From: Bilabrum cf. latius
Lineage: Eukaryota
Length of the DNA: 64,000 nucleotides
Reading direction: 5' to 3'
NCBI GenBank assembly: GCA_965178125.1
Contig: OZ237762.1
Location: 496,001-560,000 of the forward strand
Each line of letters begins with the position of its first letter. Positions within the stretch are counted from its first letter, which is position 1. The position numbers were made by a program, and so were the translations under genes. Shown one piece after another: positions 9,132-54,732 of the stretch. The notes beneath the pieces were generated by a model. That model was not told where the DNA came from and did no database searches. It saw nothing but the letters and a program-made list of their open reading frames with translations.

Positions 9132-9413
9132 GCTCGATGCCCAAAACTATACAATCCAAAGAGCTTAATTTGAATCAAACTGACAAGGTATCCGCTTTTA
9201 AAAGTGAGATGGACCGCTTCTGAAGCAAGGATGGTGAAGAATTTGCGGGCATGTCGATCCGATACATCAAGCAAAACCCGGAAGAGGGAGAGGCACAGCC
9301 ACTGGCAAGCCGCAAGTAGCGCGGTGACGCGTCACATCCCATTCGGTACGCCACCAACCCTGCTGCGCCTGCTAGCAACAATGCGAATCAAGTATCGCAT
9401 GGTCGCATACCTC

Positions 9414-11723: not shown

Positions 11724-11818
11724 AGTCGATCCGCGGCGGCGGGGGCTTTACTTCTGCTGCCGGGGAGCATGGGCCGCATGTCGGGCAAGGGGAGGGAATA
11801 CAGCAAGGAGGCGCGTTA

Positions 11819-18364: not shown

Positions 18365-18371
18365 CTGCTAG

Positions 18372-23261: not shown

Positions 23262-23510
23262 GGTGGAATTTGTCGTAGATGTTTACTCAAAGTCCTCAAT
23301 AGGATCTGCTTTGCTGTCGATACTGTTGCTTTATGGCTCTGCGCGGCCAGCGTTCCTGGTAGGACACGTGGTAAAACCTGATTTTACAAACAATTTTGCC
23401 AGCCTGATGAGAAATACCATTTTTACTGAACCACTGAGAAGCTCGGCGGGTGACTCTCAGTACATCTTTTTCATCAATGCAGGGCCCCTCGGCCAGCCCA
23501 AAGCGGAGGC

Positions 23511-24761: not shown

Positions 24762-24849
24762 GGTAACGCACGCGCGATGCGAAAGGCTGGAATTGCGCCC
24801 AATCAGGCCCCAATACAGTAAGTGTTCGCAACTTCAAGTCGGACGTTGA

Positions 24850-26388
24850 TAGCTAAACCTAGAAGTCCTCAGGATGCTGGACAAATTCCTGCTGGACATG
24901 CGCTGGATGATTGCCAGCGGATCGACGCAGGTAAGGCCATTCTCCATGGGAGGCCGATATGTGCCAAGCCTTGCGATGAACACCGAGCTGCTCACTGCAA
25001 CAGCAGCGGGACGAGTTGCAGTGAGCCTGCTAGATCTGATCGAGTGCCCCCTGAAAAAGGGCCTTGACGTAGCAGCCAGGTACATGTACCAGGGCCGACA
25101 CCTGCAGGGACCACCGCTACAGACGGGCCCCCTCGGGGCCGCCCTGGCACTGGGATACAGAATCAAGATGCCTGGGCGGATTCTACATTCTGACGACGCG
25201 AAGGACTGGCTGGGATATCAAGAGACTGCGAAAAGAGTCACGAAATGGAGGCGATCCACGTCCGGAGCTGCGGAACGGGCATTCACAAGCCTTAGCCTGG
25301 GATGCTCGCACGATCCAGCACTGTCAGACCAAGACCGGGAGCGCGCCGCGTGCGGAGTGGTGATGGTTAACCGATTTGCAACGAAAGGACAGAATGCTTT
25401 CGGACCAGGAGCCATGGTGACTACAGCGGCAATGCAGGAGTACGGTCATCAAGGAAGACGAATCCTGCGCATCCGAGCTGGACAATACCCACAGCAGGGA
25501 ACGCCCAACCTCCAGGTATCGGGCACCGCGGTAGAGCAGATGGAGCGGGCTGAGCATGAGCGTCACGCCGAAACGAAGCCGTGGCAACCTGATGCCGGGG
25601 ATCAGAATAGAGGGAGGTCGCCCGCCTCTCTTCGGAAGGCATGGGCGAAGACAGCTCTCGCCCTGGATCCCTGGGACGAGAAGCTGGAACACACCAACAG
25701 GGCCAAGCCAATCGTCGAAGGCGCGCTCATTCGGATAGAGCGCACGATTGCACGGTCCTCGGAACGTACAGCTGTCAAGGTGCTGGCCAACCAAGTGGTG
25801 CAGGTGCTCCGAAACCAGCTGCGCCAGCAGGAGCAACCGACATGCAGGCAGTGGATGCGTGGTGATGCGGCGGCTGCCTTAGCCGCCACGGCCACGCAGG
25901 AGCTGATAGCGGCAACCAATGCGAACGCCCGACTACAGCGACGGATTTTCAAGCCCCACGGCTTGCTAAAGGATATAGAGAGGCAATGGGCCAAAGGCAT
26001 GAGCGCGTGCATGCTCGCCTCTCTGAAGGATCGTGAGACGCAGAGACGGTCATGGAGGAGGAAATGGTGGGTCTCGACCGGGGACCCTGATGTGGGACTG
26101 GACCGCGCCTTGTGCCGGGCACACGCTCCGCACCTGTATGCTTTCTCCTTGTGAAGGCAACAGGCTGGAGGCCTGTGGGGGACCACACTGATGGCGAAGA
26201 ATGGGAACTCGGCGGCATAGGCTGAGAACGGGGGGCCTTTGGCCTGAAAGGGCCGGGGGTCTTGTAGTCCTTTGTTTTTAGGGCTCCTCTGGATCTAGGT
26301 GATCACCCAAACCCCCTCGGGGGCGACGGTGCATCTGGGTGTTTATGGAATCTTTACCCAACAATGTATTTCTGTATTTCTGTATTTC
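24850..26388 (+). mobile_element. 5'-truncated LINE family B; C-terminal ORF part, 3' UTR and (TATTTCTG)n tail
   Basis: Protein is collinear with the post-RT part of family A (DKFLLDMRWMIASG vs DRFLARMRWMLATG; GRRILRIRAGQYP vs GRLILRVRAGIYP). Octamer tail at ~26365-26388. Confidence 0.88.
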
Positions 26389-26496: not shown

Positions 26497-27203
26497 TCAC
26501 GCAGTCTCAACCACCGGACTGTCAACCTCGATGAGAAGCAGGCCCTTCAGCCCGAGCACCTGCTCCAGCACCGACATGCCTGCTTGGAGCATGCTCACTT
26601 GCTCGCTCGAGAGTCCCCCAATCAAGAACAGAGGAGACACGTTCGTCACACCGAACTGGGAGCGCTGCCTCCACTTGTACCGCCGCCACCCAGGATCAGG
26701 CGGTGCTGACACGGTCCTGCCACAGTGCAGTGCACCCAAGCTCCTGTGGGCCCCCGTCGAAACACTGTGACGTATTCTGAACCCCTCGTCATCCGCCATG
26801 CCCCCGGCCCCCTGCACTGCAAGCCCCTGCACCGCTGCAGAGGAGGCGGCGTGTTGTCTGCCCCACGCGCTCCCTCCCCTGCCCCCCCCCGGGACTAACT
26901 AGCCCCCCGGCCCCCGTGCTGCACCACCATGCGGTGCACCCGCTCGTGCCGACTTCCTGGAGGCCCACTTGGAGGTACCCTGCCCGTGCCCATGAGTGGT
27001 TGCAACCGGTCCCATTGGCGTGGGCCCAGCGATCGTGCTATGCACAGACGACGAGATCTATTGCGCGACGAACGTGGACGCAGTTGCCGTGGTACTACTA
27101 GTAGCCGTTGCTGCAGCGGAGCTTGAAGACGAGGACGATGAGGAGCTGACGACTTGTGGGCTATGGCTCCAGCCAGCAGATCCGGGGTGAGGCGCCCCCC
27201 CCG

Positions 27204-27235
<32 letters not shown>

Positions 27236-28752
27236 CCCATTGATGAACTTTTGTTGGCCCACTTGGACCCCGACTAGGACTGGCCCCAGCGGCTCCCGCG
27301 AGGTGCCCCCTGTGGCGGTGCGGCAGGCTCCTCTTCTGGTACAGGCTGCAGACTCGCAGACATGCCGCCGGACGGGTCCCTGCGTTGTTCCCTGCGTTGT
27401 TCCCTGGTCGCGCCACGGCCACCCATGTGGATTTGTTTCACACGGGCCGTGGGTAGGATCGGTCTCAGCCCGCCGTGTTCCCCGGCAGAGCCCTCCCGCC
27501 CAGTGCCGTCCAATAAGCCCATACCACCCATTGTGGATGTGGTGGTGCATCGCACTGCCGCGCCGATGGCAGAGTCGTTCGCTGCAGAGGCGGGCAGGAT
27601 GACGCGGCCCCCGGCGGCAACGTCGTCGGCCTCCTTCACCTTCCCGGCTGATGCTGCGCCCTCCGTGCCGAGGTGCAGTGCACTGTGGCTAGGATGCGCA
27701 CCTGCCTCACGCGAGAACGCGTTGGCGCCGGCATGATCCCGCTACTGGGGTGTATCGCACTGCGGCGGTGCCGCAGCCCTCCAGACCTCCGCTGGGTCCA
27801 GCAGGTCTTGGCCTTGTGGCCCCTTTTGTTTCTCCTTCTCTACTGCTTCACCCGCCCATGATGCGCGGGCAGCATCGGGTCTTGCTCCTCCTTGGCTCGG
27901 ATGCTCGGTTGCAGACGCTGTCGTGCACACGGACTCGGAACAGTCCCCGCCCTCGATGCCTCCGGTGAGCGAGAGGGAGGCCGTGGGCATGCCGCCGGCA
28001 TCGTCGTCTCCCTCCATCGGGGCCTGCCTGGATTCCCGAGCGCGCGCAGGGACACGGTAGGGAGCAGAAGATGTTGTATTGCCCATTGGGTTCATGCGAA
28101 CTGAATCCGTTGGCATCTATGCGCCGCTCGGTGGGTGGTCACGCCTTGTTGCGACCAAGTTCGCGCGACCGCGCGCCGGGCCGGAGCTGTCGACGTCGAC
28201 GCCAGGTTGGTTGCTTTCGACTCCATCTCTCGTTTCCACTGAGCCTAATGCTGCAAATCGCTCGTCGGTACTTGGATATACTAATTTGGAGTCAATTGCG
28301 AAGGTAGGGTCCGTGACGAATTCCTGAATTGGTGAATCACTACTGAGTCTTGTTCCACGTGATGTTTGCAAGGACGTACGGCCCCCTTGATGCGCGAGCT
28401 CGTCATCCTTTTGGCTCACAATATGCCAAGATACGTGCTCATGTTCGCGACAGTATGCATGCACAACAACAGGGGGTTTTGCTTTACTGTCGGTTGTCTG
28501 AGATGCCACGCTGCCAGCAACGCGGGACGATGAGGAGGTGGCTTCTTTGCCCGTGGATTCGCCTTCAGTCAGTGCACTCCACCAGCTTGACCTCAAGTTC
28601 TCCCTAAGCCACACCTACAATACGTATCCTTCAGCCTTCGTGGGCTGGAAAAAACACCGGCTTGTCTGAGTCCGTCGAGCAGCAAGCACCACGCTGCAAC
28701 CATGGCGCGTTTGCTTGCCCTACACCCCGCTTCTGGTTCCTTGCGCTGCCAT
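26497..28752 (-). CDS. Unknown family member 4 (751 aa)
   Basis: VVLAARRTQTSRCFFQPTKAEGYVL*VWLRENL, VVHAYCREHEHVSW, and VSPLFLIGGLSSEQVSMLQAGMSVLEQVLGLKGLLLI. Five ORF-track pieces lie in one frame separated only by TAG. Ends in TGA. Confidence 0.8.
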
Positions 28753-28945
28753 TTGTTCTTTGATTTTAGGCCAGCACACTATGTAGGGACGATTGCTAGG
28801 AGTGTTTGCCGTAAATGCACGAATGTATTGCCAAAGGCGAAACGTGTACTTATATCGTAACTTGATGCCCGCCATCCCACCCTATTGCCCCAAGAAGACA
28901 AGCAACAAACCTATGTGCGCAAAGCTAAATGTTTACATGAACAAG

Positions 28946-30616
28946 TCAATCCAAAATCTCCTCTGCGACTCGTGTTGGCTGTGTATGCTTGGGGCAGCTC
29001 CCATCCTCCCCTCTTGCCACCGGACGCAAAACCACAACAAGCAACCCAAAGAGGCCCAGAACTTCCTCCAATACCGATATTCCGCTCTCGAGCAGCTAAA
29101 CCTGTCTATCGGACAAACCGCTGATCAGAAAAAGGGCTGAAACATTGGCGTGGCGGCAGCCTCGTTGTCGCGCTGCTTCCTTCTCGCCGCAGGCCTCAGT
29201 CCCGCCCACCCGGTTCAATGACGCCTCAGGCTGTGCTGTTTGCTAGCTAGCAACCCCATGACTGCTGTGCGTGCCGGCAGCAGGGAGAAGGCGACTGCTT
29301 CTACGAAAGCAACTCTTGAAGGACGCTGCTGGCGAGTGCTCGGCCTCGCTGCCGCGTTCTGCACAGGCCCAGGGAAGTGCTGGCGGGCTTACCGCTACAC
29401 CTGTGCTCCTATAGCAACGCTATTCGCTTCCGAGAACAACGCGCTGCACTCTTGCGCGGTGCTGAAGCTGCGAAATATGTGCTGCGTCACTGCTATGCCG
29501 AGCAGCAGATGCCAGCGGCAACGGAATCTGCTGCTGTTGATATGTCATCCTGCCCGCACTCTCCCCAGCGTGACCACACGTTATGTGTAGCCCGCTATGC
29601 CGCTCGGCAGCATAGCTGTCGTTGCCAGCAGGCACCGCCGACGGATGGCCACTAGCAACCAGAGGCCGAGCCTTCAGCCTTGTGCTCCTACTCTCGCCGC
29701 GCGATGATACGCCCGTCTAAATACGATCGCAGGGCCAGCTAGAGCACCCAGTAGTCCAGCGGACGCCGGGAGTGGCCCCAGCCGCGGGGCTGGACGAAGA
29801 AGAAGCTCGCCCTTGCGCATCCTGGCGAGGGACCGACGGTGTTGCGACGCTGTCTAGGGCGTCCACGTCTCCTCGCGTGTCATGATGCGATACGAATGCC
29901 ATCGGTAAGCTCGTGCTCCAATGGTGAGTGGTTGAGCACTCGGCGGACTGGCTGGTGCAGCAACTGCCCATGCCATCGCCGCGCACGAATGGACCCTGCG
30001 TGTCCTCGTCCTCATCGAGGAGCCCGTCCATGGAGGCACCGCCACTCTACACGAACGACAGCCGTCTCGGAGAATGCACGCTTGATATTGGGAGTAGTTC
30101 TTCCATGGAGCGAGTAGATTGCGCGCACGATGGGCACTCGGGGTCGGAGCTGACAGCATGATGGCCTGGCGATGTGTCCACGATCGACGCGGTTTGCTTC
30201 CCGTCAGGCCGCTCGAGTGGGATCATAATGCTTTTAGATAATCCCTCAAATTCACCAGAGTAGGCATGCACTCTCAGTGGCTGGGGCACGACAACCCGAT
30301 CGTGCTTGTGCTCGCCATCCATGCCAGCAGCACACCCGCTGGCCACAACTTCTTCGTCGAATTTCTGCCCCGCAAGCAAGAACCAGGCCTTGCAGTTGAG
30401 GTTCTCTCGGAGCCAATTCTATAAAATGATTCCTTCCGCACCTGTTGGTTGAAAGAAACAGCGACTACGTGCTGTTCTTCGGGCAGCTAGAACGACACGA
30501 TTGCCAACGGGACTTGCCAACTTCGATTGCCGTGCGGTGCAAGTTGCGCAAGCGCTATGCACAGTCTTGCAGAGCTATGAGCTGCTCTGGCTGCTACTCT
30601 GTGGTAAATTTGACAT
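28946..30616 (-). CDS. Unknown family member 5 (alternative ATG at 30652)
   Basis: VVLAARRTARSRCFFQPTGAEGIIL*NWLRENLN, LRVHAYSGEF, and VSALFLISGLSDRQV*LLESGISVLEEVLGLFGLLVVVL. One frame, TAG only. Ends in TGA. Confidence 0.78.
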
Positions 30617-31772
30617 TGTACGGCTATTCTGCGGTGAATGATCTTCGAACATGGCCTCACAAAGCAATCGGCCGTTCCTGCGAATCCATCAACGCCAATC
30701 AGCAGCCATCACCATGTCAAACAGCTCAATGCCGACGGATTTTGGTAGCGCCACCGACGTCCGAATCGCTGCTAAAGTCATACGAACGAAATACTCACTC
30801 TAATCGGCAGGATACTACTCAAAATTGTCTGCTATGTGGTAGATGCGCGACCTGTCTCGGGTCAACTGTCTTCATCTTCAGGCTCGCCACGACTTGAAGC
30901 AAGAGATTCCCTTACCTGACCCAAGCATCCCACGGTACCCTGGACCATACCCTGTCCACCTGTAAGCCCCTTCCTATCCTTTGCCGCCCACCAAGGCATC
31001 TCCTCCAACCTCGCGCGGCCTTGCGCGTTGCGCTGCGGTGCCCCTGCAGTGTGCCACGAATTCCCACCTCAGTGCGTGAGGGGCTTGCACCTCTAAGGCT
31101 GAGTTCGCGCGCTGGGCACAGCGCTCGGGCGAGGCGACAAGTTGTGTGGCGTGATTGAGGTGAAGGAAAAAGGGGGTTGGGTGGTATGGAGGACAGGTGG
31201 ACAAGGTGGACGGGGTGGATGAAGCGGGAGGCAAAGACAAGGCAGGAATGTGCAAAGGGGGTGGTGAGGCTCGGAGGGGTTCCGGGTTAGGATGGGGGTA
31301 GGAGAGGATACAATCCCCCATCCAGATGCCGTCATCGGAAGGATCGGCAGTCACATAAGTCGGATGCGTCGCTACAGCCGTAGGCGACAAGAGAGCGAGG
31401 TGGAGCACTCTGAATTGTATCATCTCGCGGGCTTGCACCGTCGGATCGTTCCAGTGCTTTGACCAGCACGTGGCATGAGCCATGACGATAGGCGATCAAT
31501 GCACATGTTTGTCCGCGGCAAAGCTTGTATGCGGCACCACTGTCAGACTGCAGCACAGCAACAGGCTCGGATCAGCGGTACAATTATCGGATAAGACCTA
31601 ATAAATAGATATATACGCTCTAGGGTGCCTATTCTGGCCATATCGCAAGCTTTTTTGTCAACTTTATGCACTTGTCGGTATCACATTGGGCGTAGCACAG
31701 GTTAGGCGCAAATGTTTCGCACTTAACTATTAACGACGATTGCTAGCTGACAGTGCCGAGCCATCATAAGGC

Positions 31773-33059
31773 TCAGTTCCCTCTGAGAACTACCAGCACC
31801 AGACCATCGATCCCGAGCACCTGCTCCAGCAGCCACATGCCGTCCTACAGCATGCTCACTTGCTCACCTGAGAGACCCTCAATTTCAAACAATGGGGAAA
31901 AGGTAAACAAACCGAGCGTACTACTAGAAGCACCCCGTTCAGCAGCGCGGGTCGGTCGGCTTGCTTGTGCAGCTCGTCGGAGCTCTTTGGTCACACTGTC
32001 ACAGGCACCCTCGCGGATCGATTCCTGTTCGGCTTTGCGAGAACCATCGACAAACTAGTCTGTATACTTCTCCTTGCATTGTCTGAGCACAACATAGCGG
32101 ACTGCAGCTCTCGAAAGGGCGGTCGTTGGTGCCGCCGACCCCAGTGGCGTGGACCCACATGCCCGAGTCCCGACGGGTAGTGGCACGTACTGTGTCCCAC
32201 TGCTTCTTGAGGGCGTTGCCTTTGATCTAGACCGAGTGCTACCCGCTCGCACAGGTGAAGCCAGCTCTGGTTGTGCACGATCGCTCAGCTGGCTTCCCCC
32301 GGTCGAAGCAATTTCAGCCACCGGACCAGACTGCTCCAACGTGGCTTTGTAAGTACCGCTACAACGCAAAGCACCATCAATGGGGTACTCACAACATCTG
32401 ATTGGACCTGGTTGTGGTCCAGAATGCCCTATTGCCGCCGTCTCCGTGACCCCATCCGAATCTGTGCCGAGACGTGTCTTCATTCCATCTGTTGCGTCTC
32501 GCTTGCTGGTCGTTGCGGCAGCCTTGCTGAAATCTGTCTCATCGGATGAGGAATACAAGCAATCATCAAGTGTTCTGGTCTCGCTTGATCTGAAGGCTCT
32601 GCTCACACACAGCGTGCTGTCACTGCGCGTCGAGACAGCGTGGCTGATGTCCTGCTGATGGGCACACGACCGCCGCAGCCGAGAAGCGCTGAACTCCCGT
32701 AACGAAGGATCATGTTCCGAGCTTGTGCGTCTTACTTGGATACATACAGTGCTAGGATCCTCTTCGTGGCAGTACGGCCGCACGAACAACGATTCCGGCG
32801 GTGCCAGCGGAGCGGAGATATCCTTGCGGCTGCAAAGCGCAACTTCACCTAAAAGAAATCGCCAGGCTTCTGGCTGCAGATTTTCGCGCAACCAAGCCTG
32901 TAGGACGTCTCCCTCTTTTGCGGTGGGCCGGAAGAAGCAACGGCTCGCTGCCACCCGCCTTGCTGCTAAGACGAGCCGGAACTGCGGAGTGGTGCTGTGT
33001 TGTTTGATGTCACCTCTGCACAAACTAACTGCCGAAGAAGACGCGGACCGTTTGTGCAT
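31773..33059 (-). CDS. Unknown family member 6 (428 aa)
   Basis: LVLAARRVAASRCFFRPTAKEGDVLQAWLRENL, FVRPYCHEEDPS, and FSPLFEIEGLSGEQVSML*DGMWLLEQVLGIDGLVLVVL. Ends in TGA. Confidence 0.8.
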
Positions 33060-34439
33060 CTCGTACTAGAGAACGTTTGCTGCGCTGGAGTATGGAAGGA
33101 AAGGCCTGGGGGATGGGAATCAATTCTTTCAATGCAGTGTCGCCGCAGCTAGGCGTCCAGATGCCACTAGCATTGGACTGGCTCAAGCCTCGCACACCCT
33201 GTTCACCTGCTGTTTACACTCGTATCTTGATAGCACACCACCCTGGTTTATAAGATGAAGTGAGGCGAAAGGATTCTCACGTTTGCTTTCTGCGTTTATA
33301 TGTCGCCCAACAAGTGCTGTGGGGACGCATGCGTTTTCGCGGAAGTCAATGCAATCGACAATTCCGGTTTTGACTAGCGTGCTACGGTCCGAGAACGACC
33401 AAAAGTTCTTGGTATCCCACGAGCATAAATATGGCATCAATACACCAATACATATCTCTTCCCAATGCAAATGATTGGATTGGTCCGCGCACAACGAGTG
33501 CGATGCCAGGCAGTCTAGCCTGCCGTCCCTGAGAGACGGGGTCCTGCCTTCCACCAGCGGTCCCGGGTGAAGCAAAAAGGCAGGACAAAGCTCTTTGGTG
33601 GGGCGGCGCTTCCGCCGGCCAGGCTCCGGGATGGGATTCTCACACCCAGTCCAAAAGGGAGCAGCATGCAGAGTTTTCGCAGGCTGGGCGGAGATACTGC
33701 TGGGTGGGCACTTAGGGCAGGCATACGGAGGCGTTGGGTCTAGGTGGCACTGCCCTCTGGCTTTGGGTGGAGCCACAGCTCATAGGGGCCTACCTGTGTG
33801 CCGAAGAGGCGCTGGATTGGGTAGAGTATCTGCTTCAGGACCTGGCCAAGTGCCACCAAAGCGCCGGAAGTCACACACGAGTGAGGGAAGGGGCAGTCGG
33901 ACGATGATTTCAAGAAGAAGATCCATATGGATCCAGGCACACTGGGGCAAATTTGATTGCGTTCATTGGTTATGTTCGCAAAGAGAGCCGCAGGCCCTCC
34001 CGGCATTTCAATCCAGAGTTTGTAGTGTGCAGAACGAACAGCTTCCGGCAAGGTGGGTGGGTCAATGCCACGGCATCGATCTATCAGAGAGTGAAAGCAG
34101 CAGTAAATGGCAAGCGCAGTAGCCGGATACGAGAATGCCGTGAGTAAGAAAGACAATGTTATGCTCTAGTAGGTTTGCAGTCATTGAAAGCAGCGTGGTC
34201 GCCATGGTCGGAGCGGTGCGCGTGGTGGACTGCCGTTTGGTGTGTGACAAAGCGCGATTGCGAGTGGCAGCAAGAGCGTTCGGGAGTATTATAAAGCTCC
34301 GATGCTTGAAAAGTAACTGATATCAACTAGGCTGCCTTTTTTGATATACTTATCGCAAATTCGTGTGTAGCTTCGGTAGATCGTGCACCACAAACGGATG
34401 CCCGCAACCACCTGGTGGTTTCACCTTTGCTCTCATCCC

Positions 34440-35774
34440 ATGACGCAGTTCGCGTACAGTGCCGCAGAGTTTGACCTCGTAAGTCATTTTCTCGTGATCG
34501 GAGCGAGTGCTCAGCTGGGTGAGAGCCATAGAATTGACGATATTACCATGCTCCATGCGCCACGTCATGCTTTGCTTGAACTGCAACTGCACCCTACATG
34601 CGCAATGGAGGGAGAAATAGATAGCATTACGGATTGCTTGCGGCTTATGTTTCTTACATTAACCTAAGAGTGTGGAAGAAGCGCTGAAGAAGTCGCCTAA
34701 TCGAGGTAGAACACTCCCTGGCTCTGCTGCACCTGACTGCTCCTATAACCAATGCGGCTCCAACCTGATCATCGTAGTCGGATTCCTGTACTTTATCTAC
34801 ACTGTGAGGCAAATGTTTGTATTTGTAATCCGTGGGGCGTCTATCTCTAGAGCTCGCAAAATCTCTCGCCTATCAGATCCATACCAGCCCAACATACCAG
34901 CCCAACGGATCCCACTGTCCTTTCCTGCTACAGCCTCGGGCAAAGCGCCTCTCATCTCTCTCATTTTCCATGCCACGTATCCAATTACTGTTTACGTGCG
35001 CAGGCCCCCAGGAAGACGAGCAGGTACTACCCCAGCTCGTACCTGTCCTTGATAGTGATGGCGTCTGCCTTCATCCTGCTCCTGCTGTAGTTCTTCAGCT
35101 GGAGGGAGGCTTTCGTGCTGGGCGCAGATGGCAAGTTCCGGGTCGGAACCACAACGTACTCCAACGGCTTCAGGTACCTCAACTGGTGCATCGACGTGCC
35201 CTGTCTGCTCATCCAGCTGACGATCGTGGCGCAGCCCGACAAGACCGAGGAGAACGGCGCGCTGCAGCGGAACTTTACCATCGCCGGGCTGCTCATGGTG
35301 CTTCTAGGGTACGTGGGCCAGTTCTACGAAGATGAGGGGGAGATGACGACGCTCATCATTTTCGGTGCTGCTGCCTGCGTGCCCTTCCTCTACGTGCTGT
35401 ACGCGGCCACCTCTGTGCTTGTGAGCGCGTACGGCACTGCGCCCAAGAACGTGCACTGGATCATCACCACCATCCTCTGCATCTTCTACGCTTCGTGGGC
35501 TGGCGCGTACACGCTGGCCTATTTCGCTCCCGCGATGGGCTACAACGTGGAGAGCGTGATCATTCGCACGGGGCTATATACGGGCGCAGACATCCTCTCC
35601 AAGGTGATCTACGGGGTGCTGCTGACCTGGTGGTCAAACGAGTGCGTGAAGCGCGAGACCACTGGGGAGGCACGGGTTGAGGCTGAGGCCAAGATCCCGT
35701 AGGCTTCCGGAGCCGTGGCACCGACTGCCGAGGAGGACGGAAAGGACGGTGTGCGTGCAGCTTCGCAGGCCTGA
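34440..35774 (+). CDS. Microbial (type-1) rhodopsin with NDQ motif, KR2/NaR-like putative light-driven Na+ pump; exons 34440-34518, 34778-34803, 35004-35774 (291 aa)
   Basis: Helix C NGFRYLNWCIDVPCLLIQL (N-D-Q). Helix G ADILSKVIYG (retinal Lys). Spliced N-terminus FDLVSHFLVIGASAQLVGFLYFIYT...SYLSLIVMASAFILLLL*FFSW parallels KR2 helices A-B. Two GT-AG introns keep the frame. TAGs at 35088 and 35700; TGA at 35772. Confidence 0.9.
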
Positions 35775-36023
35775 GCTGGTCCGAATCAGTAACGAGGAAA
35801 AGCGGCATTTGCTGCGCTTCGCAAGCACCTCGCTGCTGGAATCGTAAGGGAAACAGGGCAGGGGGTTGTTCTCCGTACCCGTGGCATGAAATGTGTTTCG
35901 CGGAAGTCGATCCGGTCCGGCTCTAGTTCCGGTTTTAGGCTCCCGACGGGCCCGGGTGCGACCACGAGTGTTTCGTTGAACAGGAAAAAGAGGTCATAAG
36001 CAAGAATTGTCAGAAAAGCAGTC

Positions 36024-38135
36024 TCACTGATTCGGCTCAAGCACAACGAGGACGATACCGCTCAGCCCGAGCACCCGCTCAATCACTGGAAGACCGCCCT
36101 CCAGCATCACCACCTGCTCCTTGCTGAGTCGGTCGATGAGGAAAAGCGGGGACACCGGCACAAGGTATTCCTACATGTCTGTAGCGTGCTGATGCGGTGC
36201 CTCACGCTGTGCTGCCCTACGCGCCTTTGGAGGGGTGGCGTCGAGCTCGCCTCGAAAAAGACCTGCAGCCTACGTGTCTCCTCGGCCATCTGTGCTCGAT
36301 GGGTGGCTTATTCGTCCAAACTGGCCACATTGAGTTGTATTCCTATCGATGTGGTGCTTTGACCATGCATTGGACGAACCTTGGCCAGCCTCGCTGTCTG
36401 TTGCAGGCTATGCTCGCCCAGGAGCACCTGCTCCACTGAGAGCTCGTTCGACACCGGTGCGTCCAAATTGCGGTGCTCTCGACCCACTGAGAGCTCCATG
36501 AGCACTGGCTGAATCTGTCCCATCGTTGTCCTGGTGTGGCTCCCCGGCAGCGGCACCAGGCTTGCCGGAAGCGAGCTCGCAGAAGCAAGTGCCACGCTGC
36601 TCCACTGGCAGAGCGTGGAACCGGTCTGACGTCACGGTGACACGTTTCACCGGTCGCATGTTTCTTTCCGAGCAAATTTCTCGGAGAGATGGCTCGGCTG
36701 CCTTTACTTGCTCGCATGATTGCTCGGGGCATGGATCGCTTTTGGAGTGCGGCCTCTTCCTCATCCTCGCAGCCGAGCCTCCAAGCGCACGCAGCTCGTT
36801 CGAAATCGCAGGCTCGGATTCTTCGGAAGGCGAGCGATGCATCACCTCGAGACTACCGCCTGAGAAACTCCTGAGGCGAGCACCGGCAGTTGTCCTGCTC
36901 GCGGCTTTGCTCGGCGTTGCTTCATCACCGCACGCTGCCGGCCGGGCACTGCCAGCGCCTGCCGGTGCCGACGCTGATTGCTGCATCGACTGCGGCATGG
37001 GGACCAGCTGCCTGGCCTGTATCCCGCTCTCATCTAGAGCTCCGGATGATCGCCTGCGAAGGGTGCCAGGGTGGCATAGCAGTGCTTTGAGCTGCAGCTT
37101 GGCTGACGCGCGCAGCCAGTGCCGAGGCCGGGAGTTTCTGCGGGCAGGCGGGCTGACGCTGGCAGCATCAGCCGAGCGTTCTGAAAGATGCCTACTCGCC
37201 CCTGTTCGATCAAAGGGTGGCGACTCTGGCCTGCGAGCAGTCCCGTCTTGTTCTGATGTATTGCTGGCCGAGCGCACCTTGCGTTGCGAAGCAGCTTTGC
37301 CATCGGCAGCACTGATTGCCTCAGCCGCCGGCGATGGCGCCATCGGCTTTGCCGCTCGGCCCCAAGCCCTGCTCTCGATTGCTCCATGGATTTCGCGGCC
37401 TGAAGGAGCAGAGCAGGTCACGCCATCTTCGCTTACTGCAGAGAATGCAGAAGTAGAATCTGGCATGGGGCTCCTCGGTGAAGCGGAGCATCGGCTTGGC
37501 TCTCGTCGCGACCTTGAGCTGCCAGCCACAGAGCTTGCGAGCGATCCTCCCGTTGAGAGTTGCTGAAGTGGTTCGACTGCGCCCCCAGTTCTAGCGTGGG
37601 CACCGCCTGCTCGCGTCTATCCTGAGTATTTAGAAAAAGTAGACGCCTGGGCAGCAGGCATGTCTTGATATGGGCGACAGGAATCCTGCTGGCTCTTGGT
37701 GTCAACGCTTCCTGGCTTGCGTGCGCAATCGGTCGTTGCTGAATACCGCGTCGTCGCCGCCACCGGCTGGTGTACCAGAAGGTGCCAGGTGTAGTAATCC
37801 AATGAGCCGGAATACCCATGAACACAGATTTGAGCGTTGAGTGCACGCTCGCGGGTAGAGGTACGCGGCTTCTATCCAGCCGAGCCATTGGTGTCTTTGC
37901 TCGCCAAGCGCGACCATGCAGCGCGATTCAGATGCGATCTGAGCCAGTCTTGAAGGACGTTTTTCTCCGGTATAGATGGCTGGAAGAAAATGTTGCTTCT
38001 CTTTGTCCGCCGTGCAGCGATCACGACTGCGTGTAGGAAAGACTTCTTGCGAGCTCGGACGGGCCCAGCTGCCAATGGTTGCTTCGGCTTGCTATCCTCC
38101 GAGCGAGAATCACGTCGACGATGGGATACGTCCAT
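36024..38135 (-). CDS. Unknown family member 7 (703 aa)
   Basis: VVIAARRTKRSNIFFQPSIPEKNVLQDWLRSHLN, ICVHGYSGSLDYYTW, and VSPLFLIDRLSKEQVVMLEGGLPVIERVLGLSGIVLVVL. TAG-only interruptions. Ends in TGA. Confidence 0.8.
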
Positions 38136-38524
38136 GTTCTTGTTCGAGTGGTTTTCAGAAATGCGCCAACACAATTTGTTAGAGTCCGTATCAGTGGCTA
38201 GTTTGGCTGCCGATCTAGTTGCCGACCGGCGACTATATAATGTGCGGCTGTACCAGGTCTCTTCGTTGTCGCAGCGGAACACAGCAAGTTGGTATCAGAT
38301 AAATCCCGAGAACACCGACCTGCTTGCAATGAGTAATGTCAAAGTGAGCTTTGCCCATCTATTCCTGTTGTGGGTGCCGATTGCTGCTGCAGCACCCGGA
38401 ACAGTGGCAGTTCAATCACTTGTCAATAAACAAACAAGCAGCCACTGCTGCTGTCATGTAAACACTGACCTTTGCTAAATAGAGGTGGGCAAACGTGCAA
38501 ATATAGCCGCGGGAGTTGCCGTCA

Positions 38525-40615
38525 TCACGATTCTGGCAGCGACGACACGGTCACCAGCACGAGACCCACCAAACCAAGGACTTCTTCTAATGTCTCGATG
38601 GATTCCGGGGCATTGATCCGGTCAAGCTGCGATGCATCAAGACCACTGACGTAGAAGAGCGGGGACACGGGCAGCTCGAGCGTGTCAGGCTCGTCGACTC
38701 CGCGCGAGCCTCCCTGGCTGCCCAAGTACCTGGCAGCAGGAAGCAGCTGAGCATGGGCCGCTGGCATGCGCCCCGATGTGTGGGACCTGGGACGCCAGCG
38801 CGGAATGCGCTTCTCATGCGATGCGGCTCCTGTTTCGAATCGGGGAGCACAGTCCGGGCTGGACAGTGCTCGCCTCGCCCTCATTGGCTTGCCCCCCATG
38901 GTCACGCCGAGCACGCGAGCAACTGCACCGGCCCCAGCCGCCGCTGCTGCTTCTGGCAGATTGATGAGCTCCTACCAACCCGGTTCTCTGGAAGCACTCG
39001 ATTTCAAAATGGAAGATCTGACCTTGTCCTCGCTGGCATTCGTGGGGGTCCCGCTGGCCCCACATGTTGCCGAAGCTGCCACGCCACACTCATCAGCCTG
39101 AACAAACAAGGACGGGAGAGCACCCGTCACCTGCGGCGGGTCCCCATGCATCGGCGAGGACGACAATGTTTTCGAGACGTGCACTAAATCGTCCACTGGA
39201 GTGCTTGATGCTCGCAGCACGCAGGCAGCAGCAGGTTGTGCATCACTGCTGCCGCCTTTGCAGGACCCTGAGATGCGCCCCGCCTCGTTCGTAGTCGCCA
39301 TCATCATCGTTGTCTAGCTAGCCACAGGGCCAGGAGGGGAGCCCTTGCCGCCAGCTCTACCGGTGATGCTGCTGCTCGAGGATGAGCATGCCGGCCTTGA
39401 GCACTTGCTCGCAGCTGAGGACGACTTGCCAGTGGTGCTCGCCCTTGTCTCGCCAGCACCTGGAGGTAAAGTTGTAGTGCTGCTTCGCTGTTGGTTGCGT
39501 TCGCCATGCTGGATGCCTACTCCTGTGGCTGCACTGCATTGCACGGTTTCGTCACCTTGGCCCTCTCGTCGGCTCGCTAGACCAGCCTGGTCAGGAGCAA
39601 TCGTAAGCGCTGCCAGCACCAGGGGTGTGCCCGGCTTCACCCATACCTGCTCGCCTGACGCGGTCCTCGCCATAGCTGCAGCGGATCCTGCAGCGGGTGT
39701 GATTGCCGGCCTCAGAGGGGAGGACTCCTGCCCTGCAGACCCTGACGCGAGCCGTGCTTCGGAGATACTGGCATTTTCTGCGGCGGCATGCATACTACTG
39801 ACGACCTCTGCTGCGCCAGTGTGCCGATATTCCGCATCGTCCTGCAGCTAGACTTGGTGTGGCTGGTCGGTTCGTGCAGATACCTTCGTAGAGGACCTGC
39901 TTCCACTCGGTTGGGTCGATTTGGATTCGTGCAGAGAAGGTTGGCATTCTCCGCTCCCTTGTATTGTTTTATTGGGAGGCCGCCATCTAGACCAGAGACT
40001 GCCTCTCGCCGAATCCGAAACGGTCGCCGATCTCTCCAAGCGAACAGTCGCAGACTGCATGCAGCTCTCTAAAAGCATTGATCCAGGCACAATATCAGCT
40101 TTAGTGGAGGCCGCTTCCTATAAATACGCTGCAGATCCCCCAAAGCGCCGTCTGCAGCGCTCGCGGGAGACAGCCTATCGGCGATCGCCGGCGCTAGCGA
40201 CAAAGTTTGATTGCCAGACCCTAGACGGGTCCATGCCGCGGCACTGCTTCGCATCGTCGAGGTGAAGGACCCATGGCTTTGAATCTACAGTCGTTGAGTA
40301 GGAGTGCGCTCGTACTCGATTCACGACCTGTGGTGCGGCGTCTGCAGGCTCGATTGTTCCCGATCTATGTGATGTTCTAGCAGCTTTGCTGGACTATCGA
40401 GCTTCGGGCTCTCGCCCAGCACCGTCCTAGTCCAGGGCATTGTGACGTTGTAGCAATATGTTTACTCTCAGCCACTCTTCTAACGCCTTGGAGTCGGCGG
40501 GAGACGGCTGAAAGAAGCACGTGCTCCGCATTGTTCGGCTGGCTGCAAGCACGATGGATCGTGCAGGGTCCCTCATAATGTCGTCCGTTTCCAGCTAAGC
40601 AGCAGATTCTCCCAT
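38525..40615 (-). CDS. Unknown family member 8
   Basis: IVLAASRTMRSTCFFQPSPADSKALEEWLRVNI, VRAHSYSTTVDSKPWVLHLDD, and VSPLFYVSGLDASQLDRI...LEEVLGLVGLVLVTV. Ends in TGA. Confidence 0.8.
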
Positions 40616-40822
40616 ACCGGACCGGTTGATTTTCATCACTTTTACGTGCTTGTTTGTCTGAAGTGCTCAGTTTAGTCGTGAGTGCGTCCGTACGCAAGGC
40701 CCATGGGTCACACCTAGTCACACACAGTGTGACGACTAGAAGTTTATTGCCGAAGGTTACTATGAATTTACGAGCTAGTTGTAGCTGCAGCCTTTTTATA
40801 ATTCTTCACAATGTGCGGAACG

Positions 40823-42838
40823 TCAAGCCACGGGCAGCGACGACACGGTCACCAGCACGAGACCCACCAAACCAAGGACTTCTTCCAATGCCTCGATGGA
40901 TTCCGGGGCATTGATCTGGTCAAGCTGCGATGCATCAAGGCCACTGACGTAGAAGAGCGGGGACACGGGCAGCTCGAGCATGTCATTCCCGTCGACTCCA
41001 GGGGAGCTTCCCTGGCTGCCCAAGTACCTGGCGGAAGGAAGCAACTGGGCGTGGGCCGCTGGCATGCGCCCCGATGTGTGGGACCTGGGACGCCAGCGCG
41101 GAATGCGCTTCTCATGCGATGCAGCTCCTGTGTCGCACCGGGGAGCACAGTCCGGGCTGGACAGTGCTCGCCTCGCCCTCATTGGCTTGCCCCCCATGGT
41201 CACGCCGAGCACGCGAGCAACTGCACCGGCCCCAGCCGCCGCTGCTTCTTCTGGCAGATTGACAAGCCCTGGATGGTCCGCCGCATGGTCCGTCGAGTTG
41301 CTGCGCTTTGTGGGTGGTGAGCCGCACCCGCTGCGAGGTGGCGAGGTGCTCAGCAAGGCGCCCTCCTAGGCCACTTTCATGGGAGAGGACGGCAGCGCAT
41401 GCGACAGTTCGTCGCGCATTGGAGTGCTCGGCGCTTGCGGCTCGCGCGGCACACCCAGGGATGGAGGCATGCGCTCGGTTACAGAGCGACTATTCAAAGT
41501 GCACGAGCCACTAGGGACCCCGCCGCTGCCTCTGCCGATGCCGGTGCCGCTTCTACTGCTGCTGCTTGTGCTGGTGGTGACCGAGCACGCCGACATCGAG
41601 CTCTTGCTCGAGTCTAAAGCAGTCGCTTCGCTTGCTTCTCGTACTACTCCAGTGCAGTGTTTTGCCGCTTCTGTAGGGGCACCGCATTGCTATGCACTAT
41701 CGTCACGGCCGAATGATCTTGTGCCTGCACTATGCTACTCAGGCGCAATGCCAGTGGAGAGAGCCGTCAACACCAGGGGGGCCTGTGCCTGCGGCTTCAC
41801 CCAGACCGGGTCACCTGACTTGCTCCTGGCTGGAGCTCCCGCGGATTTTTCTGCTGTCCTCGTTGCAGTGGGAACGATCGCTGGCCGCAACGGCGAGGCT
41901 GAACCGCCAGCAGCAGCGGTACTGACCGTCCCAGCCGAGGGTACTTCTTGCGGCTCTCCGTCACAGTCATCGTCAGTCATATTAGCTACTGATAACGTGG
42001 GCCCCGGAGATTCAAGCGCTGCAGCACTCCCCCGATCCCAGGGCAACCCACCGTGGATCGCTCGTCCGCCTGCCCATGAACAGCCCTCCGCTCCGGCGGT
42101 GAGACCGCTGCGATAGGGAGAGCCAACCGCGCTTAGATTAGCTCTAGTATCTCCAAGCCTTCCAGGAGCGACTTCAGATACCCACTGCGATATGTCTTGC
42201 CTTTTGTCTTGCTCTGCCACAGATGACCAATCAGCGCGAACAGTCGGCGTGCTTCTGCGAGTGCTACTTTCTCCTCTTGCCATTGCCACGGCCTCCCTCT
42301 CCGTCACAGACGACCCCCGGTTTTGCACGCGTGTCGTATACTGCCCAGTGCGCCAGCGGCTGCGTTCGCGTACGGCAGTGTGGTAGCTGCCACCGCCGAT
42401 GACGTGATCCTCTAGACCACTTCGTCTGCTCGAGGCAGCACTGCGGTACTCCCTCGAATCGTCAAGATGCAAAATCCATGGCTTCGAATCAATTGCTGTA
42501 GAGTACGAGTGAACCAGTATGCTACATTTCTTTTTCTGCAGGACGGCTGCACCACTGACTGTTCCTGATCCAATGGTTCTACCGGGTGAGCGAGCCGATT
42601 GCGCAGCACGTCCAGGCATGACGCTGCCGCTGACCAGCAAAGAACTTGCCTGCGGCAGTATGTGAACCCTTAACCACTCCTAGAACGCCCTAGAATCGTC
42701 AGGCGAGGGTTGGAAGAAGCAAGTGCTCCTCAGTGTTCGGCTTGCGGCCAGAACGATTGAGATTGTACAGCCTGCCATGCCGTTTCCCGTCTAAAGCTGT
42801 GCTGCAGATTCCTCATGCTCACATCTAACATGTACCAT
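40823..42838 (-). CDS. Unknown family member 9 (tandem paralog of member 8; alternative ATG at 42778)
   Basis: IVLAASRTLRSTCFFQPSPDDSRAF*EWLRVHI and LVHSYSTAIDSKPWILHLDD. The 3' ~430 bp are nearly identical to member 8. Ends in TGA. Confidence 0.8.
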
Positions 42839-42954
42839 ACTAGCAATTCGTGGCTTTTGGCAGCTTTTTACAACTTGTGTGGGTGTGTGACAAGGGGAAG
42901 ACCCGCGCATTCCGTCCGCGACACATCGCCGAACCTTCGTTCTCTCTCTCTCTC

Positions 42955-43926
42955 GGCACCCCCGGGGTGGTTTGCCCCACGGGGTGGTCGTTGCAGTTGG
43001 GTAGTGTGTGCTTTGATACAGATATATCTATTCTCTCTCGGCATCGCGAACGGTTCGACCTGCCCAGCGCGATTGCCTCTTGGGGTGGTCGTTGTAGTTG
43101 GGTAGTGTGTGCTTTGACTCAGACATATTATATTCTCTCTCGGCATCGCGAACGGGTAGTGTGTGCTTTGACTCAGACATATTATATTCTCTCTCGGCAT
43201 CGCGAACGCAGATGGACCGCAAGCAGCGCAACTCCCCCACGGAGGAGCGGCCCAGCTTGCGGAGCCCATGGCGTGAGCTTGCTGATCCGTTCGACCTGCC
43301 CAGTGCGATTGCCTCTTGGGGTGGTCGTTGTAGTTGGGTAGTGTGTGCTTTGACTCAGACATATTATATTTTCTCTCTCTCGCACCTGCCTTAACGCTTG
43401 TGAGCTGCTGAAGCAGAGGGAGGCAACCGGCGCACAGGGAGCGGCCGCAGCAGGAGCTGGTGGTCAGGTGGGAGAGCTGGCAGCGGGAGTTGCGCAGCTA
43501 GGAGTGGCACTACAGCAGGCTGGTGGAGCTGGTGGTGCGTAGGGTTTGGATGCAGCTGGAGCGCCAGCTGTGCCCGCAGTACCTGCTGCAGCTGCAGTAG
43601 GAGCTGAGGGTGCAGCACCGGACGAGGCGGCTGATTCGAACGCAATCGAACACGAAGGCATCGCGAACGCAGATGGACCGCAAGCAGCGCAACTCCCCCA
43701 CGGAGGAGCGGCCCAGCTTGCGGAGCCCATGGCGTGAGCTTGCTGATCCGTTCGACCTGCCCAGTGCGATTGCCTCTTGGGGTGGTCGTTGTAGTTGGGT
43801 AGTGTGTGCTTTGACTCAGACATATTATATTCTCTCTCTCGCACCTGCCCAGTGCGATTGCCTCTTGGGGTGGTCGTTGTAGTTGGGTAGTGTGTGCTTT
43901 GACTCAGACATATTATATTCTCTCTC
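42955..43926 (+). repeat. Head-to-tail stack of six 3'-coterminal repeat units of different lengths at a (TC)n tract
   Basis: Each unit ends gggtagtgtgtgctttga(c/ta)...tat(t)tctctctc (ends at about 43038, 43141, 43195, 43381, 43840, 43926). Units range from ~55 to ~460 bp and share nested 5' parts. Confidence 0.85.
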
Positions 43927-45854: not shown

Positions 45855-46215
45855 GATCCCTGATCGATTCAGATGGGCTAATCTACTTACTAAAGGCTCG
45901 ATTGACTCAAATGAAGTCAAATACAAATGCGAAAATAGACTTTGACTCGCAAGGATGAGATGTGGGCCACTGTCGCGTGCGCGATTAGCTGTAGATCTGT
46001 CGTCTCTGTAAGATGGCCTAATTCTGACAAATGCAGTTTGCAAATACGACGTAGAAATATATGTTTAGATGCGAGTCTGTCCTACCTGGCCGTAGTTATT
46101 GTCCACTTCGGCATCGCACCATTGGTTGTGGTTCCGTTTGGTCGCAATGCCGGTTCCGCTTCCGGGGGTGGGCTCAAAATCATTCAACGATATTACACAA
46201 GCAAACACATTCAAG

Positions 46216-54562: not shown

Positions 54563-54732
54563 TGGTCGGCCCACTTGCGACCAAATCGATAACGTGCACT
54601 TTATACCGCAAATACCTCAGATTCCCCCCCGGGGTATGAATAGCTTCAATTACGACTTCTGGCGATATTTCGATTGGTTTTACATACTTTATTGAATTAT
54701 TTGGATAATATACCATGCGTTAGAGTTTCGTT

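Follow-up and report, generated by a model that had tools for sequence, protein, structure and literature searches.

The window, by which we mean the whole 64-kb stretch of DNA analysed here, carries a nuclear, eukaryotic gene for a microbial rhodopsin, and this gene is transcribed and spliced. In the reading that we favour, to which we assign a probability of roughly 60%, a GC-rich eukaryote that reads UAG as glutamine (Gln) uses this four-exon gene to make a 299-residue NDQ rhodopsin of the KR2 type (Subgroup 1), most likely an outward Na+ pump. KR2 (Krokinobacter/Dokdonia eikastus rhodopsin 2; PDB 3x3b, 4xtl and 6rex, among others) is the type Na+ pump and also the best structural match. 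An NDQ rhodopsin with introns had been proposed at this place by a sequence-only reading of the same DNA, and the helix A, helix C and helix G strings that it listed are all present in the sequence.

The structure of the gene is given by contigs from public sequencing runs, in which three GT..AG introns are removed (runs X1 and X2). All features described below lie on the forward (+) strand. The four exons, at 34107-34139, 34449-34518, 34778-34803 and 35004-35774, together encode the 299 amino acids, with all three introns interrupting the first 43 codons. Exon 1 (34107..34139; 33 nt) is made up of an ATG at 34107-34109 and 10 further codons, and is immediately preceded by an in-frame TAA (34104-34106). 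It supplies the N-helix glutamate E9, equivalent to KR2 E11, and aligns with the EN motif seen in NDQ proteins, KR2-like ones included. A spliced X2 contig covers exon 1 from 34109 to 34139 and then joins it to 34449, across intron 1 (34140..34448; 309 nt, GT..AG). Support for this intron consists of that single contig, 151 nt long, at a depth of 3.5 and reaching 31 nt past the joint on its shorter side. The most likely model is thus a gene of four exons and 299 codons that starts at 34107. The sequence-only reading, whose model lacked intron 1, had started the protein at the ATG at 34440-34442, which turns out to lie in the last bases of that intron. It had also described the N-terminus as shortened, but exon 1, which falls outside its model, restores the N-helix and the conserved Glu.

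The two introns that had been predicted, at 34519-34777 and 34804-35003, are both removed in the spliced contigs. Exon 2 (34449..34518; 70 nt) begins helix A, of which it encodes the first half with His24 (KR2 H30), and is matched over 34449-34517 in a tblastn search with the spliced protein. It is followed by intron 2 (34519..34777; 259 nt, GT..AG), whose joint, 34518>34778, occurs in one X2 contig; in X1 this intron is retained, record 1 being unspliced from 34490 to 34803. Exon 3 (34778..34803; 26 nt) completes helix A. The joint across intron 3 (34804..35003; 200 nt, GT..AG), 34803>35004, is found in one X1 contig and one X2 contig, and in the former it has a side of 255 and a depth of 157. 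Similarity to the relative P0001 starts precisely at 35004, the first base of exon 4. The coding part of exon 4 (35004..35774) contributes residues 44-299, comprising helices B-G and the C-terminal tail, and ends with a TGA stop at 35772-35774. A probable 3' untranslated region occupies 35775..35995; record 1 of X1 extends to 35995 and a separate contig begins at 35994, and the limit, as a contig end, is a weak marker of the end of the RNA. Over the positions that they cover, the spliced X1 and X2 contigs are identical to the window, including the TAG at 35088, and two DNA-type runs, X3 and X7, contain the unspliced stretch in one piece. X1 and X2 are presumed to be RNA; no RNA run is on record, and one run is flagged 'probably DNA'.

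Two in-frame TAG codons interrupt the rhodopsin, at 35088-35090 and 35700-35702, just as had been claimed from the sequence, and annotation under the standard code would indeed cut the protein short at TAG. The first TAG encodes residue 72. This position corresponds to KR2 Q78, as the sequence-only reading had proposed, and is aligned to Gln in both KR2 and the Na+ pump IaNaR; the column is Gln in 149 of the 178 other NDQ rows of our alignment, and also in the relatives P0001-P0003. The rest of the window behaves in the same way. Open reading frames of at least 300 codons sum to 8151 codons under the standard code, to 23723 when TAG is read as sense, and to 9217 when TAA is, so that a TAA-as-sense reading lengthens them hardly at all. 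Every long ORF of the window has TAG in frame, and the nine examined all end in TGA and hold 70 in-frame TAGs among them; an RCC1-repeat ORF of 2520 aa has 24. Within the RCC1 repeats, the variable position of the G?LG motif (n=13) is CAG or CAA in 6 cases, TAG in 4 and something else in 3, and a motif column in nine copies of a paralogous family holds TAG in five, Gln in two and Glu in two. Three independent gene families, namely the rhodopsin, the RCC1 repeats and the paralogue family, therefore have TAG in Gln columns. The single TAG of the ALAS gene falls in a column that varies between Thr and Ser (T 103, S 14, M 2, Q 1), and since only one of these 120 homologues has Gln there, ALAS is uninformative on the code. 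A tRNA scan of the 64-kb window returned 0 genes. Taken from these alignments and reading frames, UAG is evidently Gln in the nuclear code of the host, as in NCBI table 15, with TGA as a stop.

Under the standard code, the rhodopsin frame contains two stops, and the rhodopsin family is mostly bacterial, which could be taken to mean that the locus is a pseudogene with nonsense mutations or a bacterial contaminant of the assembly. We consider this scarcely credible and in large part already refuted: spliceosomal introns are removed in the transcripts, the long ORFs share the in-frame TAGs, and the flanking genes (RCC1, OSCA/TMEM63-like, GH56 and ALAS) are of eukaryotic type. Moreover, the best match to the rhodopsin in a prokaryotic genome reaches only 43% identity, while the protein is strongly conserved in P0001 and P0002; over exon 4, P0001 has 246 of 256 residues identical. 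The proposal that this is a nuclear gene and not a contaminant therefore holds. The DNA of the host is GC-rich, and the best named match of the ALAS protein is from the stramenopile Cafeteria roenbergensis (64%), a match too weak to assign the host. An aphelid host, considered because aphelids have a UAG=Gln code, gained no support, and a paper on aphelids and rhodopsin mentions neither NDQ nor sodium. This ALAS-type haem gene also lends slight support to the suggestion that the host is heterotrophic. A Pfam scan of 29 ORFs of the window gave no match to a family of the retinal pathway.

The second TAG, at residue 276, is followed by 23 further codons before the TGA. It could instead be a terminator, with UAG decoding being context-dependent or partial, such that a protein of 275 aa is produced and the tail is never made. 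Its position near the natural C-terminus would fit such an arrangement, as would the poor conservation of the tail, which differs throughout in P0002 and is predicted with a pLDDT of 50-70. Yet the long ORFs of the window end in TGA in nine cases out of nine, despite their 70 internal TAGs, and P0001 has a sense codon (Gly) in place of the second UAG, a tail that remains alike as far as the common end, and length differences that stay in frame. Termination at 35700 is thus unlikely, and we retain the 299-residue protein. The N-terminus of P0001, in turn, is derived from intron sequence and does not resemble that of the window protein, a contrast with the near-identical exon 4 that speaks for selection.

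The protein is a seven-helix microbial rhodopsin and belongs to the NDQ, KR2-type Subgroup 1. Its TAG-free part matches the Pfam family Bac_rhodopsin (PF01036) at 2.1e-23, and helix A, which is assembled from exons 1-3, aligns with homologues. An AlphaFold2 (AF2) model of exon 4, covering helices B-G, has a pLDDT of 91.8, and the top Foldseek matches of this model are KR2 chains (E 1.5e-10, TM 0.74). The NDQ motif of helix C (35181..35216) consists of N103 (35181-35183), D107 (35193-35195) and Q114 (35214-35216), which correspond to KR2 N112, D116 and Q123. Helix G (35589..35603) carries D239 (35589-35591; KR2 D251), S242 and the Schiff-base lysine K243 (35601-35603; KR2 K255). Overall identity to KR2 is about 32-33%. 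The ion-path residues R100, D239 and S242 match KR2 R109, D251 and S254, and E9, E152 and R231 match the KR2 cluster E11-E160-R243, with E9 depending on exon 1. Also kept are H24, S64, L68, Q72, N97 and W104, the counterparts of KR2 H30, S70, L74, Q78, N106 and W113. Other positions differ, with KR2 N61, G263 and D102 replaced by Ser, Thr and Thr; D102 belongs to an interprotomer Na+ site, and its column is Asp in only 85 of the 178 other NDQ rows. The window protein further departs from KR2 in its shorter BC and FG loops and its longer, charged C-terminal tail, in addition to a change in helix F described below; the host of its gene is eukaryotic, and the gene itself contains two UAG codons for Gln and three introns.

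NDQ rhodopsins have been divided into two subgroups, with Glu at the position of KR2 L74 defining Subgroup 2 and Leu or Ile marking Subgroup 1 (Podoliak et al., 2024; PMC11006869). The column is Leu (L68) in the window protein; among the 178 other NDQ rows it is Leu in 119, Ile in 28 and Glu in 24. Because L68 is Leu and the Gln of KR2 Q78 is retained, the window protein sits with Subgroup 1 rather than with the Subgroup 2 protein ErNaR (PDB 8qle), with which it shares the NDQ clade and the fold. In a sequence search of solved structures, the best match was the Na+ pump of Indibacter alkaliphilus, IaNaR (8.5e-35), whose structure is PDB 8JH0 according to the entry's paper (PMC10679507), followed by KR2 (2.4e-31). 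The closest solved structures are thus Na+ pumps, in line with the function first proposed from the motif. The window protein and IaNaR both have Thr at the position of KR2 G263. The same paper reports that the N-helix Glu of IaNaR is required for pumping, the E10Q variant being nearly inactive (PMC10679507), and the counterpart of E10 in the window protein is E9. Unlike the window gene, that of IaNaR is bacterial and intronless and encodes a helix F with a normal W..YP.

After the Na+ pumps, the solved structures that match best are Cl- pumps (1e-28), and NDQ and NTQ rows are intermixed in our tree, so the protein might be a light-driven inward Cl- pump, as are NTQ rhodopsins such as ClR and NM-R3 in this superclade. 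We regard this as very unlikely. The middle residue of the motif in NTQ Cl- pumps is Thr, at the position of KR2 D116, but here it is Asp107, and in Na+ pumps an Asp at this place serves as the Schiff-base proton acceptor (described in PMC11006869). Nor does the protein resemble a DTE H+ pump, which would have an Asp-Thr-Glu motif and group accordingly: its motif is NDQ, and the DTE and DTQ rows lie across a branch supported at 100/99.

We examined the relationships of the protein in a careful IQ-TREE phylogeny of 62 rows and a quick tree of 75 rows. The careful tree places it inside an NQ (NDQ/NTQ) clade with support of 100/99, and the quick tree agrees, which bears out the expectation that the rhodopsin would fall with these pumps. 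Within the NQ clade, it belongs to a 44-row, NDQ-dominated clade (94/96) together with KR2-like rows from Dokdonia and Gillisia. The sister of its own clade is a clade of diatom-linked NDQ rhodopsins (100/97), and the next group is Anaerolineae (87/85). Motif labels change 9 times for NDQ and 6 times for NTQ on the tree, so the NQ clade has seen repeated changes of motifs tied to function.

The diatom-linked clade (P0004, P0005, P0052, P0053, L135 and others) shares with the window protein the occurrence of an NDQ or NQ rhodopsin in a eukaryote. Its members are 34-41% identical to the window protein and have the standard W..YP helix F. In L135, the NDQ gene adjoins a GT64 gene whose best named matches are from diatoms (Chaetoceros tenuissimus, 61%), and the rhodopsin itself is a single uninterrupted ORF, as opposed to the four exons in the window. 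An EST of the diatom Chaetoceros neogracile encodes a eukaryotic NQ rhodopsin (Kwon et al., 2013; PMC3595038), and the genus-level match of the gene beside L135 suggests that this EST belongs to the sister clade. The nearest bacterial group is formed by the Anaerolineae NDQ rhodopsins (for example that of Bellilinea caldifistulae, annotated 'bacteriorhodopsin'), which are 38-45% identical to the window protein and share with it NDQ, Leu at KR2 L74 and Thr at G263, but differ in being bacterial, in their short tails and in keeping the standard helix F. To our knowledge, these proteins are uncharacterised.

These placements refine the idea of a horizontal acquisition. The gene is nested among bacterial sequences, as such an origin would require, but it is not a recent or private acquisition, since its nearest outgroup is the eukaryote-linked diatom clade. 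Tentatively, and against considerable doubt, the window clade and the diatom-linked clade might be one eukaryote-resident NDQ branch, derived from a single acquisition from an Anaerolineae-like bacterium and later inherited or transferred among stramenopile-like protists; in this scenario the helix F of the window's lineage, rebuilt with one more residue and without the kink Pro next to the retinal, would confer properties unknown in bacterial Na+-pumping rhodopsins (NaRs), be it in ion selectivity, colour or kinetics, and the protein would fold and traffic natively in eukaryotic membranes. Among the best 80 of 276 relatives on metagenome contigs, none was more than 44% identical to the window protein; the P0003 contig was not recovered. 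A collection of viral contigs yielded 72 pattern matches, of which 0 were relatives of the window protein, and nothing in that collection pointed to a giant virus as the source. In the metatranscriptome contigs L093 and L098, a start resembling the dinoflagellate spliced leader was rejected, as only 9 bases match the leader.

A feature particular to the protein's clade lies in helix F (W208-T213; 35496..35513). Here the W-x-x-Y-P that is conserved in, though not defining of, these rhodopsins is absent: there are three residues between W208 and Y212, one more than between KR2 W215 and Y218, and Thr213 replaces KR2 P219. Spacing is normal in 177 of 182 NDQ rows, and the five exceptions are the four rows of the window protein's clade and L101. 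Thr at the position of P219 is confined to the same four rows (4/182), with Pro found in 165 of the 178 others. The change in helix F, which lies in the retinal pocket, could alter the photocycle or the transported ion.

This raises the possibility that the gene and fold are as described but the clade, with its altered helix F and eukaryotic setting, has shifted away from Na+ pumping, toward an H+ pump, a pump for another cation, or a slow-cycling sensor that acts through hyperpolarisation or a partner. Several observations lean this way. All four rows of the clade show the change, and the other 178 NDQ rows lack it, the L101 insertion aside; it has persisted over roughly 50% sequence divergence (window protein versus P0003); KR2 itself pumps H+ without Na+ and has its selectivity altered by changes at S254 or G263, going by PDB titles and the account in PMC11006869; and the repeated motif switches within the NQ clade point the same way. 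On the other hand, all tested charged and polar residues of the KR2 ion path are retained, helix F is one continuous, confident helix in the AF2 model, and neither a fused domain nor a partner is apparent. We therefore view a shift in function as a serious possibility, but an improbable one, and continue to favour an outward Na+ pump.

If the window rhodopsin does pump Na+, as its motif and relatives lead us to infer, the cycle would presumably follow that of KR2. Light would isomerise the retinal bound to K243, and the Schiff-base proton would be transferred to D107. Na+ would then be taken up from the cytoplasm, held transiently near N103 and D239, and released by way of R100 and the E9-E152-R231 cluster. 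Overall, Na+ would move outward across the host plasma membrane, and in its absence the protein would pump H+, as KR2 does. The membrane, the supply of retinal (by a blh/RPE65-type oxygenase or from the diet) and the physiological role, which may be Na+ extrusion, a sodium-motive force or hyperpolarisation, are likewise proposed by extension. We found no transport or spectral data in print for this protein, its own clade or the sister clade.

In the literature searched, the characterised Na+-pumping rhodopsins are all bacterial, and we found no eukaryotic one that had been tested; the 2013 diatom EST (PMC3595038) is the one earlier report of a eukaryote with such a rhodopsin that we came across. 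As that Chaetoceros EST has been known since 2013, the window rhodopsin is a further member of the class and not a new kind of machine. It extends the class to a second eukaryotic lineage, where an intact, spliced gene is directly documented in a host with a variant code, although the supplements of PMC3595038 and PMC11006869 may already list relatives from this clade. Such genes readily go unnoticed, because gene callers that use the standard code halt at UAG and three introns fall within the first 43 codons. An NDQ pump native to eukaryotes could serve as an optogenetic silencer, and the clade-specific change in helix F offers a natural experiment in the NaR retinal pocket. For the protists themselves, the gene would allow light-driven Na+ export, or Na+-coupled uptake energised by light, to be tested in heterotrophic or mixotrophic species.

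The stretch at 34107-35774 (+) codes for a microbial rhodopsin. The sequence-only reading had placed this gene at 34440-35774 with two introns; the gene is real and that account was mostly right, but a first exon and a third intron have to be added to the model. All the strings quoted from helices A, C and G are found in the window, and tblastn found no second rhodopsin copy there. The last exon (35004-35774), whose TAG-free part matches Pfam Bac_rhodopsin (2.1e-23), is an open frame only if TAG codons at 35088 and 35700 are read through. To check splicing, we compared contigs from four public sequencing runs (X1, X2, X3 and X7) with positions 33800-36400. X3 and X7, which may derive from DNA, each contain the entire stretch unspliced in one piece. 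Contigs of X1 and X2, which are RNA by guess only (X1 is marked "probably DNA"), mostly cover exons and carry GT..AG joints. The joint 34803>35004 occurs in one contig of X1 (shorter side 255 nt) and one of X2, and 34518>34778 in one X2 contig, exactly matching both introns predicted from the sequence (34519-34777 and 34804-35003).

The X2 contig with the joint 34518>34778 (151 nt, depth 3.5) also carries 34139>34449, with 31 nt on its short side. This joint removes a third, upstream intron of 309 nt, which contains ATG 34440, the previously proposed start. ATG 34107, with an in-frame TAA just before it, begins a 33-nt exon, and the four exons sum to 900 nt in frame, or 299 codons plus TGA. 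This N-terminus lines up with that of homologues, Glu9 falling in the column of E11 of KR2, a bacterial Na+-pumping rhodopsin (Glu in 146/178 other NDQ rows). Thus, the "shortened N-terminus" proposed before was an artefact of the missed first exon. One abundant X1 contig (depth 157) keeps intron 34519-34777 within its 34490-34803 part and lacks intron 34804-35003, so partly spliced, intron-retaining rhodopsin RNA exists; the start of P0002, a close database relative, is compatible with the same form. Where they cover it, the run contigs agree with the window at every base, and the UAGs are therefore not edited away in the assembled sequence.

Under the standard code the window holds 21 ORFs of at least 300 codons (8151 codons), as compared with 41 (23723 codons) when TAG is sense and 24 (9217 codons) when TAA is sense. 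Nine long ORFs, each ending in TGA, together contain 70 in-frame TAGs. Among the nine are those for an RCC1-repeat protein, an OSCA/TMEM63-like protein, FG-GAP repeats and reverse transcriptase. No long ORF of the window lacks sense TAGs, that at 46216-50898 (-) included. The RCC1-repeat/TIG gene (54709-62271, +; 7.5 kb, 2520 aa) has 24. Before "LG" in 13 of its repeats stand Gln (CAG/CAA) in six, TAG in four, Arg in two and Leu in one, and a strand motif in 14 copies has Gln in ten and TAG in one. A motif column in a paralogous gene family has TAG in five of nine copies, Gln in two and Glu in two. As the sequence-only reading had it, rhodopsin TAG 35088 aligns with KR2 Gln78, and it also aligns with the equivalent Gln of IaNaR, another bacterial sodium pump; this column is Gln in 149/178 other NDQ rows. 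Because TAG falls at Gln columns in the RCC1 repeats, the paralogue motif and the rhodopsin, Gln is the best-supported reading of UAG in the host nuclear code. TGA serves as a stop, and TAA probably does too. The single TAG of a 5-aminolevulinate synthase (ALAS)-type gene sits in a variable Thr/Ser column and so is uninformative. The second rhodopsin TAG (35700) is Gly in P0001, a 96%-identical database protein. Translation of the tail beyond it is favoured, since the P0001 tail keeps its similarity as far as the shared end and its length differences are in frame, while the P0001 start is intron-derived and unlike that of the query.

The window has a GC content of 52-64%. The ALAS-type gene (11697-13487, +; PF00155, 2e-68) has its best named match in the heterotrophic stramenopile Cafeteria roenbergensis (64%). 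Non-photosynthetic eukaryotes typically make haem by the ALAS route, and the gene lends weak support to a heterotrophic host. It carries Asn in the ..DEVH.. motif where 120/120 homologues examined have Asp, Val where 119/120 have Ala, Lys where others have Tyr or Asn, and a duplicated 25-residue segment at the ORF end; catalysis may be altered in this copy. A GH56 hyaluronidase-like gene (23514-24833, -; PF01630, 1.2e-75) ends at its C-terminus in a Cys-rich, EGF-like stretch; most known members of this family are from animals, which makes it unexpected in a protist. ORFs with in-frame TAGs at 18207-20777 (+; RVT_1, 9e-12) and 24850-26151 (+), the latter resembling in translation the C-terminal part of the former, are probably retroelement copies. 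The rhodopsin gene is located within an array of about ten minus-strand tandem paralogues of 450-840 aa without a Pfam match, at about 7512-9164, 9417-11138, 21660-23282, 26500-28932, 28949-30688, 31776-33119, 36027-38294, 38528-40666, 40826-43354 and 44184-46064. Their divergent, low-complexity middles lie between a common N-terminal motif (..AARRT..S.CFFQP...LQ.WL..) and a common C-terminal one (SPLF..GL...Q..LLE......LEEVLG..GLVLV). Motif copies at about 10889-11465 and 21227-21803 (-), some 10.3 kb apart, agree fully in their local protein sequence and share a spacing of 576 nt, which suggests a recent segmental duplication.

All 51 matches in a word-indexed protein search carry NDQ. By BLASTP, P0001, P0002 and P0003 are 97%, 83% and 60% identical to the query, other matches at most 45%. 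An exhaustive search of representatives gave 218 matches, just three below 1e-30. In prokaryotic genomes, one per species, 481 stretches code for relatives; the best 80 of these are 35-43% identical and all NDQ. For trees we used rows of at least 230 aa, dropped those sharing >62% identity with a row already chosen and retained one in three non-NQ rows. In a careful IQ-TREE analysis (62 rows, 54 NQ and 8 outgroup; 284 columns), the query branches within the NQ clade (NDQ plus NTQ; 100/99). There it falls in a 44-row NDQ-dominated clade (94/96) with KR2-like flavobacterial rows and Acidimicrobiia that have Glu at L74. It groups with P0001-P0003 (100/99); P0004/P0005/P0052/P0053 are their sister, all eight together at 100/97, and the next branch, Anaerolineae including Bellilinea, has moderate support (87/85). 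Quick trees concur, one leaving the Anaerolineae link unresolved. The earlier reading of the gene as an NDQ-clade rhodopsin of a eukaryote that decodes UAG as Gln is upheld.

Among solved structures, the query matches IaNaR (8JH0; PMC10679507) at 8.5e-35, KR2 at 2.4e-31, Cl- pumps at ~1e-28 and ErNaR at 1e-23. An AlphaFold2 model of exon 4 (86 aligned sequences; pLDDT 91.8) retrieved KR2 chains first in Foldseek (E 1.5e-10, TM 0.74), followed by IaNaR, ErNaR and Cl- pumps. KR2 numbering was taken via a Gillisia sequence with motif residues at KR2's numbers; a locus from Dokdonia, in the same subclade, agrees with KR2 residue for residue (4e-132). Query E9, H24, S64, L68, Q72, N97, R100, N103, W104, D107, Q114, E152, R231, D239, S242 and K243 correspond to KR2 E11, H30, S70, L74, Q78, N106, R109, N112, W113, D116, Q123, E160, R243, D251, S254 and K255. 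By its Leu at L74, the query is placed in Subgroup 1 of Podoliak et al. 2024 (PMC11006869). It differs from KR2 in Ser for N61 (as in 126/178 rows), Thr for G263 (91/178) and Thr for D102. Its most striking departure is helix F, where the retinal-pocket Trp and Tyr have three residues between them instead of two (5/182 rows: four of the query's clade and one other, L101) and Pro is replaced by Thr (4/182, all from this clade).

The sister clade, to which 13 JGI loci were assigned, is linked to eukaryotes, namely diatoms. Eleven of these loci are mRNA-sized contigs (1.0-1.4 kb) with one complete ORF each, one ending in AATAAA and then an A-run; the other two are contigs of 7-9 kb. One of the latter, the metagenome contig L135, has AT-rich spacers and, next to the rhodopsin gene, a GT64 gene whose best named matches are in diatoms: Chaetoceros tenuissimus (61%), followed by Chaetoceros (MMETSP), Attheya, Discostella and Thalassiosira. 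In L135 (2651-3517, +) and L141 the NDQ rhodopsin gene is uninterrupted and encodes 288 aa. In agreement with this diatom link, Kwon et al. 2013 (PMC3595038) defined NQ rhodopsins, raised interdomain transfer and reported a homologue in Chaetoceros neogracile ESTs, so a eukaryotic NQ/NDQ rhodopsin is already in print; L135 and L141 would give genomic backing to a diatom protein known there only as an EST. Our searches found no paper that brings together NDQ rhodopsins and diatoms, none of relevance for protists, and, among the titles listed, none on eukaryotic NaRs; the word "eukaryot" is absent from Podoliak et al. (PMC11006869). Given the 2013 diatom report and clear NDQ-clade membership, we regard the query as a further member of a known clade, with one clade-specific unusual feature.

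Given its homology to KR2 and IaNaR, the query is most likely a light-driven outward Na+ pump. Retinal on K243 would photoisomerise and a proton would then move to D107; Na+ could next cross past the deprotonated Schiff base, be held transiently near N103/D239, and leave by way of R100 and the E9-E152-R231 cluster. Without Na+, H+ would be pumped instead. It is chiefly the extra residue and Pro-to-Thr change in helix F that leave appreciable room for a rival reading in which selectivity, colour or role has shifted. If the query is indeed a Na+ pump, it may serve this protist in Na+ export, in building a sodium-motive force, or in hyperpolarisation in the light.
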